The translations under genes were made by a program, and so were the position numbers. The notes below the pieces were generated by a model, which was not told where the DNA came from, ran no database searches, and saw nothing but the letters and a program-made list of their open reading frames with translations. Below, one piece after another: positions 31,190 through 48,738 of a DNA stretch of 64,000 nucleotides (positions are counted from its first letter, which is position 1; every line of letters starts with the position of its first letter). The stretch is from an uncultured Gemmatimonadales bacterium (GTDB taxonomy: Bacteria > Gemmatimonadota > Gemmatimonadetes > Gemmatimonadales > GWC2-71-9): NCBI GenBank assembly GCA_963795085.1, contig CAWCFX010000004.1, positions 512,001 through 576,000 on the forward strand, read 5' to 3'.

Positions 31190-34100
31190 TCACCGGGTGG
31201 CATTCCGCACTTTCGCCAGCATCCGCTCCAGCCGGTCGAGGTGGGTGATCGTCAGCGTCACCGCGCCGAACTCCATCTCGACCTTCCCCCGGAAAATAAA
31301 AGGCCCCTGGTCGAAGAGCACGTGGCCCCGCTCCCGGTAGACGTCGGGAAAGAGCACGGCCTCGATCAGGCCCGGCCCGTCATCGAAGGTGACAAACTCC
31401 ATCGGCTCTTCCTTCGCTGTGTGCACCGGCTTGGAGGTGGTCAGCATGCCGGCGGCCAGCACGCTCCGGCCCACGTGCCGGGCGAGCTCGGTGCTCCGGA
31501 CCAGCCGGAACCGCCGGAGCGATTCCCCGTGCAGGTCCATCGGATGGGCGTCGGTAATGAATCCCAGCGATTCGTACTGCTCCCGGCGCCGGCGGGTGCT
31601 ATCGTATTCCCGGAGCGCCGGGACCCGGTCGCATGAAGCGGCCAGGCCCAGCGGCGAACCGCCCGCCCGCCCGCCCGCCAGTTCCAGGTCCCGGTCCCGC
31701 GTCTTTACCCGGCGAAGCTCCGCCTCGTCGATTTCCCAGAGCATCATGGGCCGGGTCTTCCCGCCGGCAATGCCGTCGAGTGCCCCCACCCGGACCAGGA
31801 TCCGCAGGTCGTCATGGGAGAGGCCGGCGCGATCCCGCAGGTCGTCCACTGATGCAAAGGGACGGACCACCCGGCCCGCCAGGAGCCGCTCCACGCCCGC
31901 CGCCGACAGCCCCTTGATGAACTGAAAACCGACCCGGAGCCAGTCGTCCTTCCCGGTGCAGCGGAACTCGCTCTCGTTGACATCCGGCGGGAGAATCCGG
32001 ATTCCGTTCCGCATCGCCTCCGCGATATAGGCGAAGGGATGGTAGAACCCGCCCCCGTTCGCCAGCACCGCGGCGAAGAACTCGGCGGGATGGTTGGCCC
32101 GGAGATAACAGGAGTGCTGGGCCACCTGGATGTAGGAACAGGAGTGCCCCTTGCAGAAGCTGTAGCCGGCAAAGGACATCACCATGTTCCAGACCTTCTT
32201 TGTGGTCTCCGGGTCGCGCCCCAGCGCCTCGGCGCCGGCGAAGAACTCCCCGGCATAGGCCACCAGGCGCTTGCCCGGTCGCTTGTGGGAGAGCGCCTTG
32301 CGCAGCCCGTCCCCGCTGGACAGCGGCATCCCCGCGAAGGCGGCGCAGACGTTGACCACGTCCTCCTGGTAAACCATAACGCCGAAGGTTTCGCTCAGGG
32401 TGTCGCGGAGTACCGGGTCGAGGGGCTCGTAGGGAGCGCCGTGGAGCCGCTCGAGATAGACCCGGATGTACTGGTTGGAGGCGGGACGGATGATGCTGGT
32501 GTTGAGCACCAGCAGCTCGAAGGTGTTGGCCTGGCTCTTCTGGCAGAGCTGCCGCGAGGCGGGCGACTCGGTGTAGAACACGCCCATGGTCTGGCCGGTG
32601 CGGAACAGCTCCCGGGTCTTCGGGTCGTCGCCCGCCTCCGACGAGGTGTAGTCGATCAGCGTGCCGGTGTGCTGGTGAACCGCACCGATGGCGTCGCGGA
32701 TCACGGCCAATGAGCGGTTGCCCAGCAGGTCAATCTTGACCAGGCCGGCGTCTTCGGCCCCGTCCTTTTCGAACTGGATGACCGGCATCGTCAGGTCGGG
32801 GTGTCCCTCCAGTGTCTTGACCGCGGGCTCGAGGGGGACGTAGTCGGTGAGCGCGCCCGGCACGATGACCACGCCGCCGGGGTGGAGCGACAGGTGCCGG
32901 GGGATTCCCACCAGGGGCTCCGCCATGCGGGCCAGGTCGGCCCAGATACCGGGCAGTTCCAGGCTCCGGAAGTTGGGATGGCCCCGCATCATGTCCGCCA
33001 GGGTGGCATCGTCGTCTCCCCACCAGGGCAGCCGGCGGGTGACCTCGCGGATCTCGCCCGGCGGCCGGCCGTGGACCTTGGCGACCTCGCGGAGCGCGCC
33101 CCGAAGCCGGAAACAGTTGTGGTTGGCGACCATCGCGGCGCGGGGCCGGGGGTAACGACGAAAGACATAGGCCAGCACCTGGTCCCGCTCGTCCCAGGGA
33201 AAATCGAGGTCAATGTCCGGCGGGTCTTTCCGCTCCGGATTGAGAAACCGCTCGAAGAGAAGCCCCGCGCCCAGCGGCTCCACGTGGGTGATGCCGAGGC
33301 AGTAGCTGACCACCGAGTTGGCGACGGAACCGCGGCCGCAGTGAGTGGGGCCGTGCTGCACGATGTCGCGGACGACGAGGAAGTAATCGGCGAATCCCTT
33401 CATCTCGATAACCCGCAGCTCGTGCTCCAGCCGGTCGCGGGTGACCGGCGCGACGGTGCCATAACGGCGAGCCGCGCCCTCGTAGGCCAGTGCCCGCAAC
33501 TGCCCCATGGCATCTTCGTGTGCCGCCAGCCTGGGGGGGATGATTCGCCCCCGGGGAATCTGGTACCGGCACTCGTCGGCGATGGCCGCGGCGTTATGGA
33601 GTGCTTCGGGACAGTCGGGGAAGAGCCGGTCGAGGTCGGCGGCCGGCCGGAGCCAGGCCTCGCGCGGCGCCAGGCGGTCGGCCGGGCAGGCGGACAGGGC
33701 GGTGTTCAAGCTGATGGCGCGGAGCAGCCGGTGCCGTGACCAGTCTTCGGCGTTAGCAACCACTACGCCATTGGTGGCGACCGGTGGAAGGCCCAGCCGC
33801 CGCGCCGCCGCCAGCACCAGGTGGCGGTGTTTGCCGGGGACCAGCTCGGCATACAGGTTGTCGGGACCGCTCTCCTGGAGCAGGTGCTCCAGCAGCGCAA
33901 TGTCGGCGGAGAGGAGGGCCAGTCCCTCGCGGTCGGCGGCCAGGTGTCGCGCCAGCGAAAAACTCCCCGGCTCCCGTCCCCTGCCGCCCTGCCAGTGAAT
34001 CGCCGTGATCGCGCGGCAAAGTGCGGCCCAGCCGTGCTCGTCCCGGGCGAGGGCGACGGCTTCCTCGCCTCCGTGGACGAGATGGGCGCCCAGGATGGGA

Positions 34101-34276
34101 CGGATCCCCGCCGCCTCGGCGGCGTTCTGGAACTCGATGGCGCCATAGACCCCGTTGGTGTCGGTACAGGCGAGGGCGCTGAATCCCCGCGCAGCGGCAG
34201 CGGTGGCGAGAGCCTCCGGGCTGGAGGCGCCGATCCCGAAGGAGAAATGGGTGTGGACGTGGAGGTGGGTAAACAC
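31190..34276 (-). CDS. dnaE2: DNA polymerase III alpha, error-prone DnaE2-type
   Basis: PHP HLHVHTHFS; GRGSVANS, PPDIDLDF, RHLSLHPGG, KIDLLG; C-terminal OB fold; neighbours an ImuB-like gene. Confidence 0.88.
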   Translation of the reverse strand: MFTHLHVHTHFSFGIGASSPEALATAAAARGFSALACTDTNGVYGAIEFQNAAEAAGIRPILGAHLVHGGEEAVALARDEHGWAALCRAITAIHWQGGRGREPGSFSLARHLAADREGLALLSADIALLEHLLQESGPDNLYAELVPGKHRHLVLAAARRLGLPPVATNGVVVANAEDWSRHRLLRAISLNTALSACPADRLAPREAWLRPAADLDRLFPDCPEALHNAAAIADECRYQIPRGRIIPPRLAAHEDAMGQLRALAYEGAARRYGTVAPVTRDRLEHELRVIEMKGFADYFLVVRDIVQHGPTHCGRGSVANSVVSYCLGITHVEPLGAGLLFERFLNPERKDPPDIDLDFPWDERDQVLAYVFRRYPRPRAAMVANHNCFRLRGALREVAKVHGRPPGEIREVTRRLPWWGDDDATLADMMRGHPNFRSLELPGIWADLARMAEPLVGIPRHLSLHPGGVVIVPGALTDYVPLEPAVKTLEGHPDLTMPVIQFEKDGAEDAGLVKIDLLGNRSLAVIRDAIGAVHQHTGTLIDYTSSEAGDDPKTRELFRTGQTMGVFYTESPASRQLCQKSQANTFELLVLNTSIIRPASNQYIRVYLERLHGAPYEPLDPVLRDTLSETFGVMVYQEDVVNVCAAFAGMPLSSGDGLRKALSHKRPGKRLVAYAGEFFAGAEALGRDPETTKKVWNMVMSFAGYSFCKGHSCSYIQVAQHSCYLRANHPAEFFAAVLANGGGFYHPFAYIAEAMRNGIRILPPDVNESEFRCTGKDDWLRVGFQFIKGLSAAGVERLLAGRVVRPFASVDDLRDRAGLSHDDLRILVRVGALDGIAGGKTRPMMLWEIDEAELRRVKTRDRDLELAGGRAGGSPLGLAASCDRVPALREYDSTRRRREQYESLGFITDAHPMDLHGESLRRFRLVRSTELARHVGRSVLAAGMLTTSKPVHTAKEEPMEFVTFDDGPGLIEAVLFPDVYRERGHVLFDQGPFIFRGKVEMEFGAVTLTITHLDRLERMLAKVRNATR

Positions 34277-34365
34277 GCGAACGATACCTTAAGTGTCATG
34301 CGTTTTTGCGCTCTGTTCAAAAACAGGATCTTGCCTAACTATGTGGCTGTGTAGACCCAGCCAGG

Positions 34366-34580
34366 TTGATCCACCCAGGCTCAGCTGGTTGATCAATACC
34401 AGGCCCAACGGTGATCTCTACCCGGCCCAGCGTGTTGATCACTATCCGGCCCAGCGTGTTGATCTCTATCCGGCCCAGCGTGTTGATCTCTACCCGGCCC
34501 AGCGTGTTGATCACTACCCGGCCCAGCGTGTTGATCACTATCCGGCCCAGCGTGTTGATCACTATCCGGCCCAGCGGGCC
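34366..34580. repeat. 24-bp tandem array GATCWCTAYCCGGCCCAGCGTGTT: 7 near-perfect plus 2 degenerate copies
   Basis: GATC phased at 34413, 34437, 34461, 34485, 34509, 34533, 34557; degenerate units at 34368 and 34391. Confidence 0.95.
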
Positions 34581-34652
34581 TGAATCCATGAGCCCAAGGC
34601 GGGAGCCTTGGGCTCGGGTATCAACCCAAATCCAGGCGGCCTGAAAGGCCGC
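34568..34652. repeat. Left REP-like hairpin cluster
   Basis: GGCCCAGCGGGCC; GAGCCCAAGGC-GGGA-GCCTTGGGCTC; GCGGCCTGAAAGGCCGC. Confidence 0.8.
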
Positions 34653-34667
34653 GATACCCGTTCAAGC

Positions 34668-35119
34668 ATGCCGCAATCATTGTCCCGCATTCTCATTCAC
34701 ATGGTATTCAGTACCAAGCACCGTGCATCGGTACTCACGCCAGGAATCCGTGCGGAATTGCATCCCTATCTTGCCGCCGTCCTGACCAACAATGGCTGCC
34801 CCTCGCTGCGAGTTGGCGGCGTCGAAGATCATATCCATCTCTTCTTTGGCCTTCTCGCACGTTGACTGTTGCTCAAGTCGCAGAAATGGTCAAAACCAGT
34901 TCCTCCAAATGAATCAAGACCAAAGGCAGGGAGTTCAGCCAGTTTCATTGGCAAGGGGGATATGGAGCTTTCTCCGTGAGCGAGTCAGCCGCGGATGTCG
35001 TCATACGCTACATCAGGAAACAGCCGGAACATCACAAGCGACGGACTTACCAGGAGGAGTTCCGCAAGCTCCTCGGACATCACCATGTCACCTATGATGA
35101 GCGGTATGTCTGGGACTGA
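34668..35119 (+). pseudogene. tnpA: IS200/IS605-family (RAYT-like) HUH Y1 transposase, disrupted
   Basis: MPQSLSRILIHMVFSTKHR..GGVEDHIH, then a -1 frameshift near 34853, TGA at 34910 where Trp is expected, then FHWQGGYGAFSVS..RYIRKQPEHH..YDERYVWD*. Confidence 0.9.
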
Positions 35120-35135
35120 TGATGTCGCCCGTCGC

Positions 35136-35260
35136 CCCGGCCCGATGGGCCGGGATGATGGATCACGCGCCGTTGGCGCGTTTCCGTGATCCGTGGGGCC
35201 ATCCCGCGCGACCCCGGCCCGATGGGCCGGGCTGACGAATCGCTCGCGCCGTTGGCGCGT
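35136..35260. repeat. Right REP-like hairpin doublets, two copies
   Basis: CCCGGCCCGATGGGCCGGG at 35136 and 35213, each followed by CGCGCCGTTGGCGCG (35166, 35245). Confidence 0.85.
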
Positions 35261-35302: not shown

Positions 35303-35869
35303 TCACCTGCGTTTCGCTCCCCGGCCTTGCTGCACCACCGCCCAGGCCGGCTTGAGCCGGGCGATGCGCCGGTACACCGGGCACTCCGGCGCGTGGGCGC
35401 CCCGCAGGTAGCCGATGCTCATCAGGAACTCGCCGACGATCTCTCCGCCGGTGAAGCGAAAGGTCTTCCTGAAGAGTGCCACCCATTCCTGTTTCGACCG
35501 GGGGTGGTGGGCCTCGAGCCATCCGGCAAAGGACCCGTGACTCTTCTGCAGTTCCAGGATGGTCTGCGCATTACTGATGGCCGCGTCGACCTTGAGGCGG
35601 TTCCGGATGACGCCCGGGTCTGCCAGGAGGCGGGCCCGGTCCCGGGCTCCAAATCGCGCCACTACCGCCGGGTCAAACCCCCGGTATGCCGAGCGGAACG
35701 ACTCTTGTTTTTTGAGGATCGTGAGCCAGGACAGACCCGCCTGGTTGATCTCCAGGACGAGACGCTCGAACAGCGCGGCATCGTCTCCGATGGGGAACCC
35801 GTACTGGGTGTCGTGGTACGGCCCGTGCCATTCATGGCCGGAAGCGATTTGACAATACGTGGTGGTCAT
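35303..35869 (-). CDS. tag: DNA-3-methyladenine glycosylase I
   Basis: YHDTQYG, LFERLVLEINQAGLSWLTILKK, IRNRLKVDAAISNA, AHAPEC. Confidence 0.93.
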   Translation of the reverse strand: MTTTYCQIASGHEWHGPYHDTQYGFPIGDDAALFERLVLEINQAGLSWLTILKKQESFRSAYRGFDPAVVARFGARDRARLLADPGVIRNRLKVDAAISNAQTILELQKSHGSFAGWLEAHHPRSKQEWVALFRKTFRFTGGEIVGEFLMSIGYLRGAHAPECPVYRRIARLKPAWAVVQQGRGAKRR

Positions 35870-36086: not shown

Positions 36087-37321
36087 TCAAGCCACGAGGC
36101 CAGCCGCTTTTCCCCGCACCAGTTTCCCCGCTCCCCAGCGAGTGGTGATGCGGTCAATGGCGGCCTGCAGGTTGCCCGGCGGGGTGTAGCGGACGGGGAC
36201 CTGCGCCGCGGAAGCGGGCCGGCGTTCACCCGCCTTGAGGAGGACATCAGACCAGAAGAGGTCCAGCTGCGATTCCTCTTCCACCAGGCGGTCAGCCCGG
36301 ACGGTGACCGTGCGGATCGCGACCGGCCGCGCCCTGGCCAGCGTGAACGCCCGGCGTGCGGCGTCCCACAACTCCACGTCCAGCAGGGCGGGGGCGAGGG
36401 CCAGCCCGTGACGGGCCGTCAGGTAATCGGTATAGCACAGTTCGATCACCACCCGCCGGGCCGCCAGGTGCCGGGCCCGCAGCCGGCGGCCCAGCCGCTC
36501 CGTCATCCGGCGAAGCAGGGTATGCAGCAGTCCCACATCGTTGCTGTCGCTTCCCAGCGTATGGCTCAACTCGAACTCGGCCCGCACGGCGGGCGGAAGC
36601 ACCGGGCGGGGATCAATGCCGCGGGCCCGGGTTACCAATTCGCGCCCCGGCCGCCCGAAGACCGAACAGGCCTGCTGCTCGGTCAGCGCCGCGACCTCGC
36701 CGATCAGGTCCAGCTGGTAATCGTCAAGCCGGGTCCGCATGGGCGCCGGCAGATCGGGCAGGAGTTCGACCTGGTGGGGCGCCAGGAAACCGGCCTCGTG
36801 ACCGGCTTGGACTTCCACCAACGGCTCGCCATCGCCGCCACCGTCTAGCCGGTCCGCCCGCACTGCCGCTTGGCTGACCAGCTTGTTGGTGGCCACCCCG
36901 ACGGTGAGGGGAAGCCGGATCCGGTCGCGGGTCTCCCGCTGGATCCGGTCCGCCAGGTCTGCGGCGGGGCCAAAGAGCCCGGCGGTGCCGCTCACATCGA
37001 GGAAGGCGTGGCCGTACCCCGCGGCTCGATGACCGGGGCATAGCAGCGAAGGACCTCGTGCAGCGCCCGCGATGCCCGGGCGTAGAGCTGGGGATTGGGC
37101 GGGAGAATCACCAGGTCGGGGCAGATTTTCCGGGCTCGGGGCAGGAGCATTCCTGGCCGGATGCCGGCCCGCCGGGCCTCCAAGGAAAGCGCCAGGACCG
37201 TGGCCCGGTCCGCCCCCGGGGGAGCGATCACGATGGGACGGCTCCGGAGCCCCGGCGCCGCCAATCCCTCTACCGTGGTACAGAAGGAAGGGGGGTCTAC
37301 ATAAAGAACGGCCCGGAGCAT
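36087..37321 (-). CDS. Y-family polymerase homologue (ImuB/DinB-like, catalytic acids degenerate); -1 frameshift near 37018
   Basis: YVDPPSFCTTVE, EARRAGIRPGM, CPDL, EPRG/YGHAFLD, TVGVATNKLVS; C-terminal QLDLF clamp-binding-like motif. Confidence 0.85.
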
Positions 37322-37322
37322 C

Positions 37323-37375
37323 TTCGGTCTTTCTTCGGTTATTCCGGAAGATATGCCTCCCGCCGCCGACGTCAA
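37323..37375 (-). promoter_or_regulatory. Sigma-70 promoter (TTGACG-N16-TATCTT) plus CCGAA-N6-CCGAA box
   Basis: -35 at 37375-37370, -10 at 37353-37348, direct repeat at 37338-37323 next to the ATG. Confidence 0.65.
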
Positions 37376-37503: not shown

Positions 37504-39128
37504 ATGACTGATCGCCGGGAATTTCTCAAGCTGGCCGGCCTCACGGCTGCCGCGGTCGCGGCGGACGGTGCGCTCCAGCGTGCCCTCGCTCAGGCCCGCC
37601 CCGCGGCACCCCGGGCTCCCACCATGGATCCCGCGACCCGGGAGCTGCTGATGGAGGCGCTCAACGCCGCCAAGCTATCGGGGGCGACCTACGCCGACGC
37701 CCGAATCGGCCGGCAGCGGCAGAGTTCGGTATCCACCCGCGAACGGCAGATCACCAATGTCTCCGACACCGAGACGATGGGCTGTGGCGTCCGCGCCCTG
37801 GTGGACGGCACCTGGGGCTTCGCGGCGACCCGCACCCTGACGAAGGAAGGCGTTGCCGTTGCCGCCCGCGAGGCCGCAGCCATCGCGAAGGCCAACCGGA
37901 TGGCCCGGGACCGCGCCGTGGAACTGCTCCCCTCGCCGGTCTACCAGGACGCCAGCTGGCAGAGTGCCTTCACTATCGACCCGTGGACCATCTCGGTCGA
38001 GGAGAAGGCCGACCTGCTGCTCCGGGCCAACGCCGAGGCGATCAAGGTGCCCAACGTCCAGTTCGTGAACAGCTCGCTGTTCTTGGTCAAGGACGAGCGG
38101 AACTACGCCAACACCGACGGCTCGGTCATCACCCAGTCGTTCATCCGGGTCTCGCCCAACTTCACCGCGACGGCGGTGGCGCCGGACCGCTCCGACTTCC
38201 AGCGCCGCTCGTCCGACATCGCGCCGATGGGCCGCGGCTGGGAGTATGTCCTCGAAAGCGACCTGGTGGGCAACGGGCCGGCAAGTGGGGCGAGGAGGCC
38301 GCCCAGAAGCTCTCCGCCACGCCCGGTGGAGGTGGGCCGCTACGACCTGATCCTGCATCCCTCGCACCTCTGGCTCACGATCCACGAGTCCATCGGCCAT
38401 CCCACCGAGCTCGACCGCGCCATGGGCTACGAGGCCAACTACGCCGGCACCAGCTTCATCGCGCCGCCGGACAAGATGCTCGGGCATTCTCAAGTACGGC
38501 CCCGAGTTCATGAACATCCAGGGCGACCGCTCGCAGGAGGGCGCCCTCTCCACGATCGGCTACGATGACGACGGGGTGAAGCCCGACGATTTCCTGATCG
38601 TGAAGAACGGCGTGTTCAACGACTACCAGACCACGCGCGAGCAGGCGCCCTGGCTCCGCTGGTGGTACGACCGGCAGGGCCAGCCCACGCGGTCGCACGG
38701 CTGCTCGTACGCCCAGAACTGGGCCAGTGTCCAGTTCCAGCGCATGCCCAACGTGTCGCTCCTTCCGGGCGAAGCCGACCACTCGTTCGAGGACATCATC
38801 GCCGCGACCGACCGCGGGATCGCCATCGTCGGCGACGGGTCATTCTCCATCGACCAGCAGCGCTACAACGCGCAGTTCGGCGGCCAGATGTTCCACGAGG
38901 TCCGGGGCGGCAAGATCGTCGGGATGCTGAAGGACGTGGCATACCAGATCCGCACGCCCGACTTCTGGAACTCGATGGACATGATCGGCGGTCGCCGGAG
39001 CTACCAGTTGGGCGGCACATTCTTCGACGGCAAGGGCCAGCCGGGCCAGAGCAACGCGCGTGAGCCACGGCTCGGTGCCGGCGCGCTTCCGCCAGGTCAA
39101 CGTGATCAACACCGGGAGGCGGGCATGA
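37504..39128 (+). CDS. tldD: Tat-exported TldD-family metalloprotease, four apparent indels
   Basis: DRREFLKL twin-Arg signal, GVRALVDGTWGFA, IHESIGH, GYDDDG, QRMPN; indels near 38277, 38326, 38485, 39059. Confidence 0.88.
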
Positions 39129-47382: not shown

Positions 47383-48516
47383 CTACAAGCCAGCTATCCC
47401 CTGGAAGAGGGCGACCTGGTGGTTGGCGGGTTTCCGCGCGGGCGCGCGATAGCGTTCTTCCCGGGTCCGGCGGAAGCCAAACTCGGCTTGGAGTTCCTGC
47501 AGACGCCGGGTCAGGGCGGCCTGGTACTCCCGCGACACGTAGTAACGGCTCTCGAAGTGGGCGTGGTAGCGGGCCGCCACCTCGGGGAACTCCGCTGCCA
47601 CGAAGGCGAGGAAGCGGGGGGCCAGGACTGGATCGAGCCGGAGCGCCGACCCGTGGACGTAGTATGCCCCCGCCTCCTTCGCAGCGGCGAAGAGAGCGGC
47701 CAGCCCCGGGCGATCGTCACTGATGCCGGGCAGGATCGGCGCCACCAGCAAGCCGGCGTGAATCCCCCCGTTTACGAGCGTTCTGAGCGCACGGAGCCTG
47801 GCCGCCGGAATGGGCGACCTTCGCTCCAGCCGCCGGGCCAGCGCGGCGCTGGCGGTGAGGAGCGAAATGTTGACGGTGACCTCGTGGATCCGGGACAGCT
47901 GCTGCAACAGCTCGAGGTCCCGGGTTACCAGCGGCGACTTGGTGATGATCCCGATCGAGAGCCCACGGTAGGACCGGAGCCGCTCCAGGATCTGCCGGGT
48001 GATCCGGTACGTCCGCTCGGCCGGCTGGTAGGGATCGGTGGCAGTGCCTATGACCAGCGAACTGTCCCGGAGCCTGGCGGGGTCCAGTGTTCTTGCCAGG
48101 ACCTCGGGTGCAGTGGCCTTGACGAGGATGTCCTTCTCGAAGGCCTCAAACTCACCGCCCGGCCCCCTCTCCGTAAGCGGGGAGGGGGAGCCGTTGGCCA
48201 TGGCTCTCTCGGTGGCGTAGCGATGGGTCTCCCGGGCGTAGCAATAGCTGCAGCCGAATTCACATCCGACGTAGGGGTTGATGGACCAGTAGCCCATACC
48301 CGTGGTGGCCGGCGTGTTGAGCACCGAGCGGACGTCCCACTCGATGAAGCGGGCGCCGCGCTGGCGCTGATCCAGGACGGAGAGGGCCGGCGGACCGGCG
48401 GACAGCAGCACCAGTTGCGCTTCGCTCGTGCCTCGCTTGGCTGGGGTGAGCACGGGAAGTTCGCGCCTGGCATGTTGTCCGTCGGAACGCCGAGCCGTCT
48501 CTCCGGCTAGCCACAT
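47383..48516 (-). CDS. Radical SAM protein, SplB/Rv2578c-like DNA-repair family; start uncertain
   Basis: INPYVGCEFGCSYCYA, GTATDPYQPAE, ITKSPLVTRD, APILPGISD. Confidence 0.9.
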   Translation of the reverse strand: MWLAGETARRSDGQHARRELPVLTPAKRGTSEAQLVLLSAGPPALSVLDQRQRGARFIEWDVRSVLNTPATTGMGYWSINPYVGCEFGCSYCYARETHRYATERAMANGSPSPLTERGPGGEFEAFEKDILVKATAPEVLARTLDPARLRDSSLVIGTATDPYQPAERTYRITRQILERLRSYRGLSIGIITKSPLVTRDLELLQQLSRIHEVTVNISLLTASAALARRLERRSPIPAARLRALRTLVNGGIHAGLLVAPILPGISDDRPGLAALFAAAKEAGAYYVHGSALRLDPVLAPRFLAFVAAEFPEVAARYHAHFESRYYVSREYQAALTRRLQELQAEFGFRRTREERYRAPARKPANHQVALFQGIAGL

Positions 48517-48674
48517 CTGCCCCATCCGCATTGCAGGCAGTGCACACAACCCGAGTTGCGCGCGATCGGCCCGGAGCAGTCGGGGCAGACGCGCACCAGG
48601 GCAATGAGCGCCGGTTTGATTTGCGGCGTGGGGGTGGCCGGGCGGGGTTCTTGGGGAGGGGGAAAGTGGAGCAT
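48507..48674 (-). CDS. 55-aa stand-alone Cys-rich zinc-ribbon protein
   Basis: Manual translation MLHFPPPQEPRPATPTPQIKPALIALVRVCPDCSGPIARNSGCVHCLQCGWGRCG*; lies directly downstream of a predicted promoter. Confidence 0.75.
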   Translation of the reverse strand: MLHFPPPQEPRPATPTPQIKPALIALVRVCPDCSGPIARNSGCVHCLQCGWGRCG

Positions 48675-48683
48675 GGGTCTGCC

Positions 48684-48738
48684 TTCGGCTTATGTTCGGT
48701 ACTACATCCGAATATACGCCGAACCTTTTGGCCGTCAA
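48684..48738 (-). promoter_or_regulatory. Sigma-70 promoter (TTGACG-N16-TATATT) overlapped by TTCGG-N6-TTCGG-N8-CCGAA-N6-CCGAA
   Basis: -35 at 48738-48733, -10 at 48716-48711; pentamers at 48684, 48695, 48708, 48719. Confidence 0.7.

Follow-up and report, generated by a model that had tools for sequence, protein, structure and literature searches.

The window, by which we mean the whole stretch of 64,000 nt that was analyzed, harbors two loci on the minus strand at which the sequence-only reading had recognized an ImuB-like gene and a Zn-ribbon/radical SAM unit. Both gene calls held in the domain search. The gene for the imuB-like Y-family polymerase (36087..37321, -) has ImuB/IMS domains and is interrupted by a frameshift near position 37016 in this assembly; the neighboring tldD-like gene is also split by a frameshift, at about 38510-38568. 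As imuB is unbroken in relatives of the same genus, both frameshifts are probably assembly errors. Downstream of imuB lies a methyladenine glycosylase gene (tag; 35303..35869, -). The region 34293-35189, between tag and a dnaE2-like polymerase gene (31190..34276, -), contains short repeats and a broken transposase-like ORF, which we take to belong to the IS200/REP-associated family. At the second locus, an ORF for a 55-aa Zn-ribbon protein (48507..48674, -) with weak similarity to the C-terminal tail of B12-dependent ribonucleotide reductase overlaps the gene for an Rv2578c/PA0069-like radical SAM protein (47383..48531, -) that scored below the curated family cut-offs. In several relatives (loci L214, L217, L221, L224 and L236), Zn-ribbon, radical SAM and imuB form one gene run without an imuA-sized gap. 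In the window, the radical SAM unit and imuB are separated by a tldD/MoxR cluster, and imuB has its own promoter with the repeat described below.

A promoter scan predicted one sigma70-like site per scanned region at each locus (shuffle mean 0.1), namely TTGACG-16-TATCTT for imuB (37348..37375, -) and TTGACG-16-TATATT for the Zn-ribbon/radical SAM unit (48711..48738, -). The direct repeat CCGAA-N6-CCGAA follows the -10 hexamer at a distance of 9 nt and 11 nt, respectively, and the 18-mers of the two loci are identical at 14 of 18 positions. This confirmed in the sequence what had been claimed before, that both loci share TTGACG-N16-TAT[C/A]TT and, 9-11 nt further on, a CCGAA repeat. The candidate LexA box of imuB (37323..37338, -; CCGAA orientation on the transcribed strand) ends 2 nt before the start codon, and that of the radical SAM unit (48684..48699, -; same orientation) lies between the -10 hexamer and the Zn-ribbon start codon. 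The sequence-only reading had counted two copies in the window and had missed a third, inverted one: this candidate box (48708..48723, -), in TTCGG orientation on the transcribed strand, overlaps the -10 hexamer of the radical SAM promoter. The same arrangement was seen again in relatives. Three copies in the window compare with a shuffle mean of 0.25, and none of 100 shuffles reached this number.

The source genome assembly (G000) has a size of 3.89 Mb and is 93% complete. Exact TTCGG-N6-TTCGG occurred at 14 sites genome-wide, while 13.0 were expected. There is thus no enrichment by count, and the signal lies in the placement and the conservation of the sites. Nine of the 14 exact sites stand just upstream of genes and five overlap long ORFs. 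The nine upstream sites belong to lexA (two), recA, imuB, the Zn-ribbon/radical SAM unit (two), a radical SAM-HhH gene, a DUF5131 gene and an Hpt-like/RND intergenic region. The radical SAM-HhH gene, which is TIGR03916-like but below the cut-off, is a second repair radical SAM gene with an exact box. A copy with one mismatch was present at uvrB. No box with ≤1 mismatch was found in the source genome within 300 nt upstream of uvrA (two genes), ssb, recN, dinB, dnaE2 or tag. The check on repair genes that was proposed together with the sequence-only reading was largely borne out: lexA (twice) and recA carried the box, although uvrA, ssb and recN did not. As dnaE2 has no box of its own, SOS control of this gene would hypothetically need read-through from the imuB promoter, from which it may be separated by the repeats and the transposase-like ORF at 34293-35189.

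We built a scoring matrix from 111 sites at the lexA and recA loci of other genomes. The matrix ranked the nine upstream sites as the top nine of the source genome, with the imuB site first. At ≥18 bits it detected 11 sites; 15 matrices with permuted columns gave 2.9 on average and 7 at most. Since it was trained on exact matches, the matrix ranks sites mainly by their flanks, which partly reflects promoter context. The uvrB site scored 14.3 bits, a value within the noise of the matrix.

Two of the upstream sites concern genes of other types. The exact box at 304889-304904 of contig C4 fills the -35/-10 spacer of a promoter that faces an AcrB-type RND efflux gene. It was first considered as the operator of the small Hpt-like gene, an assignment that was rejected in view of the direction of the promoter. 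The site was common to only 1 of 14 other loci (in a genome of the same genus) and is therefore not claimed as a conserved member; a recent recruitment of the RND efflux promoter to the SOS response is possible. The exact box at 3337-3352 of contig C1 stands 15 nt before the DUF5131 gene, which is adjoined by a TcmP-like gene. The two genes are possibly a damage-inducible pair.

The regulator had been stated to lie outside the window, and this was indeed the case. It is most likely a canonical LexA of 202 aa, encoded on another contig (C2:36025-36633) by the only S24-peptidase gene of the source genome. The protein passed TIGR00498 with 208 bits (cut-off 111), and alignment to solved LexA structures showed that it retains the Ala-Gly site for cleavage as well as the catalytic Ser and Lys. 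Relatives with 83-92% identity are present in records named Gemmatimonadales or Gemmatimonadota. A second, weak match to the LexA DNA-binding domain (C1:1121794) has no S24 domain and was rejected as LexA; this protein is presumably HrcA. Many genomes of families f2-f8 hold a second, divergent LexA-like gene with about 25-38% identity (L189-L192). These genes encode a different helix 3 and are not preceded by the box.

Conservation of the box was strongest upstream of lexA. Among the best 80 of 193 GTDB relatives, 78 had one or more exact boxes no farther than 150 nt from the lexA start and 77 had two, whereas three control windows contained no exact box. The spacer was 6 nt in 78 of these 80 loci, and spacers of 0-5 and 7 nt occurred in none. 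In all 78 tandem loci, box 1 begins 6 nt after TTG, directly behind the TTG-led -35 hexamer; it fills the -35/-10 spacer, and box 2 comes after the -10 hexamer. As judged from the sequences, this placement of box 1 is the geometry of a repressor site. A phylum-wide search matched lexA in 117 of 121 genomes, and 70 loci were examined. The exact box was present at the primary lexA gene in all 54 genomes of the own class (families f1-f9, source genome included); it was absent from all 12 loci of other classes and from all four paralogues. These two lexA sets overlap in part, and the kin within them are not independent.

The examination of recA covered 50 loci from 61 genomes. The exact box was found in 26 of 26 genomes of the own family, and a box with one mismatch in 7 of 7 genomes of family f2 (mostly TTCGT-N6-TTCGG) and in two of the four genomes that represent the remaining families of this class. 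None of 13 genomes of other classes had a TTCGG box with ≤1 mismatch before recA; the windows for such distant genomes were short and loosely anchored. The weakened box TTCGT-N6-TTCGG of the family f2 recA promoters (L141, L148, L151, L152, L211, L212) may allow higher basal expression of recA. The radical SAM unit (33 genomes matched) carried the exact box in 28 of 30 loci, and the two misses end short of the promoter. Conservation at orthologous promoters, which had been named as a check on the sequence-only reading, was therefore seen at lexA, recA and the radical SAM unit. The radical SAM-HhH gene had the exact box in 6 of 6 loci. At uvrB (41 matched), 6 of 30 loci had the exact box and 15 of 30 a box with ≤1 mismatch.

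The imuB gene differed in its context between genomes. Among ten other imuB loci, two had their own box, six were located directly behind the radical SAM gene, one was cut by a contig end, and one distant homologue was without box. Because imuB follows the radical SAM gene in six of ten relatives, the two promoters of the window may go back to a single operon promoter and do not count as independent evidence. From such a common origin one could argue that the two promoters are alike only through duplication of one ancestral promoter when the operon was split, and that the repeat has no function. A duplication would cover at most the two window promoters and not lexA, recA, uvrB or radical SAM-HhH. 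Moreover, the half-sites stay fixed while the spacers vary freely, and we give this explanation hardly any credence. Unlike the two window promoters, the boxes at lexA, recA and uvrB are independent evidence.

We also scanned metagenomes for the tandem box at the DNA level only. At least 119 stretches were retrieved, 56 of them beside lexA. None of the 119 stood beside another of the SOS queries, and 63 were beside neither, many of these being simple repeats. On viral contigs, none of 69 tandem TTCGG matches was near LexA or another SOS query, and among the TTCGC matches listed none was near LexA. A LexA search of the viral contigs retrieved mostly phage repressors. Some viral-contig LexA genes with the helix SVSTAHYHV (L502, L503) show a CGAA-N7-CGAA-like repeat directly after TATAAT, which might belong to this box family as well.

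The position of the boxes relative to the predicted promoters bears on what kind of protein they serve. The sequence-only reading had placed the box near +1. This was correct for both window loci in so far as a copy follows the -10 hexamer, but boxes were also found in the -35/-10 spacer or over the -10 hexamer, and in either orientation. The motif was always within or adjoining the -35/-10 elements, as would also be expected if it belonged to the promoter itself, either as the recognition element of an alternative sigma factor or as an extension of the promoter. A sigma factor could not contact the motif in two orientations and at three different places around the -10 hexamer, and this reading has a negligible probability in our view. 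The two orientations and three positions instead fit a repressor site.

Further information on the binding protein came from the other classes of the phylum, one family of which matches proteins named Glassbacteria. The layout of the lexA promoter is the same there, and the half-site is TTCGC. Three of the 12 lexA loci of other classes were without box. Helix 3 of LexA reads ATVH-E-H in the own class versus AT[VA]H-K-H in the other classes, and alignment to solved structures placed the E/K position at Glu45 of E. coli LexA. Glu45 is listed among the DNA-contacting residues in PMC3091678 and PMC13416735. All 54 LexA proteins of the class have Glu45, and the fifth base of the half-site was G in 205 of 208 half-sites within 300 nt; all 12 LexA proteins of other classes have Lys45, and the fifth base within 300 nt was C in 27 of 30 half-sites, T in 3 and G in none. 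Read on the CGAA strand, the pairs are Glu/C and Lys/G, in agreement with the usual side-chain preferences. In E. coli, Glu45 presumably contacts the outer cytosine of its site. We infer that residue 45 of helix 3 (E. coli numbering) reads the outer base of the half-site.

In a tree of 40 proteins the Glu/Lys split followed the branching, and it amounts to one or two events, with some forks of the tree left open. A distant metagenomic LexA (L390), which is 45% identical and sits on a long branch, combines Asp at position 45 with TTCGG boxes. No box was present at four lexA paralogues whose residue at this position is Glu or Asp. In the search that named Glassbacteria, 119 of the 120 proteins listed have Lys, several of them named Acidobacteria or Vicinamibacterales. 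The TTCGC form was not enriched in five genomes, with 44 matches versus 35 for the reversed control. Another 18 TTCGC sites were selected by eye among the 44. Two of them lie before a umuDC-like pair and before a dinB-like gene, respectively, and the others of the 18 showed no link to genes of these types. No exact TTCGC box was found near recA in the five genomes scanned.

The change from Glu to Lys in step with that from TTCGG to TTCGC points to LexA as the binder. The site could alternatively be bound by another DNA-damage regulator, such as a tandem pair of WYL-domain proteins resembling PafBC, with lexA as merely one of its targets. Two adjacent WYL-domain genes are indeed present in the source genome (C6:810939-812102), and direct repeats are unusual for the symmetric LexA dimer. 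This pair has no box upstream, and the base change tracks a residue of the LexA helix. PafBC and DriD are activators, whereas the sites lie over core promoter elements in either direction, as is typical for a repressor. We therefore consider binding by a WYL pair very unlikely; the PafBC-like genes may serve a LexA-independent damage response.

Taken together, a cleavable LexA is encoded, the lexA promoter is boxed and conserved, recA, imuB and two radical SAM genes are boxed and uvrB is so in part, and the boxes overlap or adjoin predicted core promoter elements. On these grounds TTCGG-N6-TTCGG, on either strand, is very probably the LexA operator (SOS box) of Gemmatimonadetes, a little-studied class. 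The two boxes at lexA, the box at recA and the conserved orthologous promoters also support the idea of the sequence-only reading that the repeat is the operator of a DNA-damage repressor. As far as sequence comparison can tell, LexA would bind and repress at the boxes, and the genes would be induced by damage. The scheme that LexA sits on its boxes until RecA filaments trigger its cleavage follows established SOS biology (PMC9578287). The LexA dimer would bind two half-sites of the same direction 11 bp apart, a period that brings the half-sites to the same side of the DNA helix. Bound in the -35/-10 spacer, over the -10 hexamer or just after +1, it would block RNA polymerase. DNA damage would lead to RecA filaments and self-cleavage of LexA, which would relieve the repression of lexA, recA, imuB and the repair genes of the radical SAM type, as well as of uvrB in some genomes. 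A usable motif for the SOS regulon would thereby become available for a phylum that is abundant and mostly uncultured, and genome sequences alone would suffice to predict damage-inducible and mutagenic genes. Two questions of LexA biology could be cleanly tested in this system: how lineages come to differ in operator specificity (one residue, one base), and in what way a direct repeat is read by a symmetric dimer.

The alphaproteobacterial LexA box is GTTC-N7-GTTC (PMC8565304, PMC9578287, PMC3323433). The Gemmatimonadetes box is likewise a direct repeat with an 11-bp period and a TTC core, located before lexA, recA and imuB-type genes. It differs in that G precedes TTC in no more than 24 of the 158 first half-sites and 53 of the 158 second ones, whereas GG at the 3' side is fixed. 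Helix 3 is also different, with SLATVHEHL in Gemmatimonadetes and SKSG[IV]HRLI in Alphaproteobacteria. None of the six own promoters matched the GTTC-N7-GTTC consensus, and none contained the palindromes GAAC-N4-GTTC or CTG-N10-CAG. The boxes of Gram-positive bacteria (CGAAC-N4-GTTCG) and E. coli (CTGT-N8-ACAG) are palindromes, unlike the TTCGG direct repeat. The half-site CCGAA nevertheless contains the CGAA core of the Gram-positive box, the helix S-x-x-TVH is Gram-positive-like, and Glu45 is common to the LexA proteins of Gemmatimonadetes and E. coli.

Direct-repeat LexA boxes are reported in PMC8565304, PMC7739468 and PMC3323433 for Alphaproteobacteria and Balneolaeota and, by citation, for Acidobacteria and Patescibacteria. 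The Patescibacteria motif (Sanchez-Osuna, Barbe, Erill 2017) is cited among the direct-repeat motifs in PMC7739468; it stems from another phylum and may be identical to TTCGG-N6-TTCGG. No SOS box of Gemmatimonadota was found in the literature searched, which included few subscription papers, and "gemmatimon" had no match in the supplement of PMC8565304. The box had been called new, and for Gemmatimonadota this holds within the literature searched, although the motif published for Patescibacteria may have this very sequence. Lineage-specific LexA boxes are well known, and the surprise is modest.

LexA proteins named Acidobacteria or Vicinamibacterales are close relatives that share the helix SLATVH-x-HL but have Lys at position 45, which under our interpretation predicts TTCGC-N6-TTCGC for these bacteria. 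The LexA box of Acidobacterium capsulatum, reportedly described by Mazon et al. in 2006, is said to be GTTC-N7-GTTC. It is conceivable, at a little below an even chance, that Gemmatimonadota, Glassbacteria, Acidobacteriota and perhaps Patescibacteria share a single family of direct-repeat boxes, TTCG-N7-TTCG, in which one LexA residue determines the fifth base: an acidic residue 45 would give TTCGG and Lys45 TTCGC. If true, a one-residue switch of specificity would have been caught in nature, and GTTC-N7-GTTC of the Acidobacteria would be an off-register reading of such a box and not a sign of transfer from Alphaproteobacteria.
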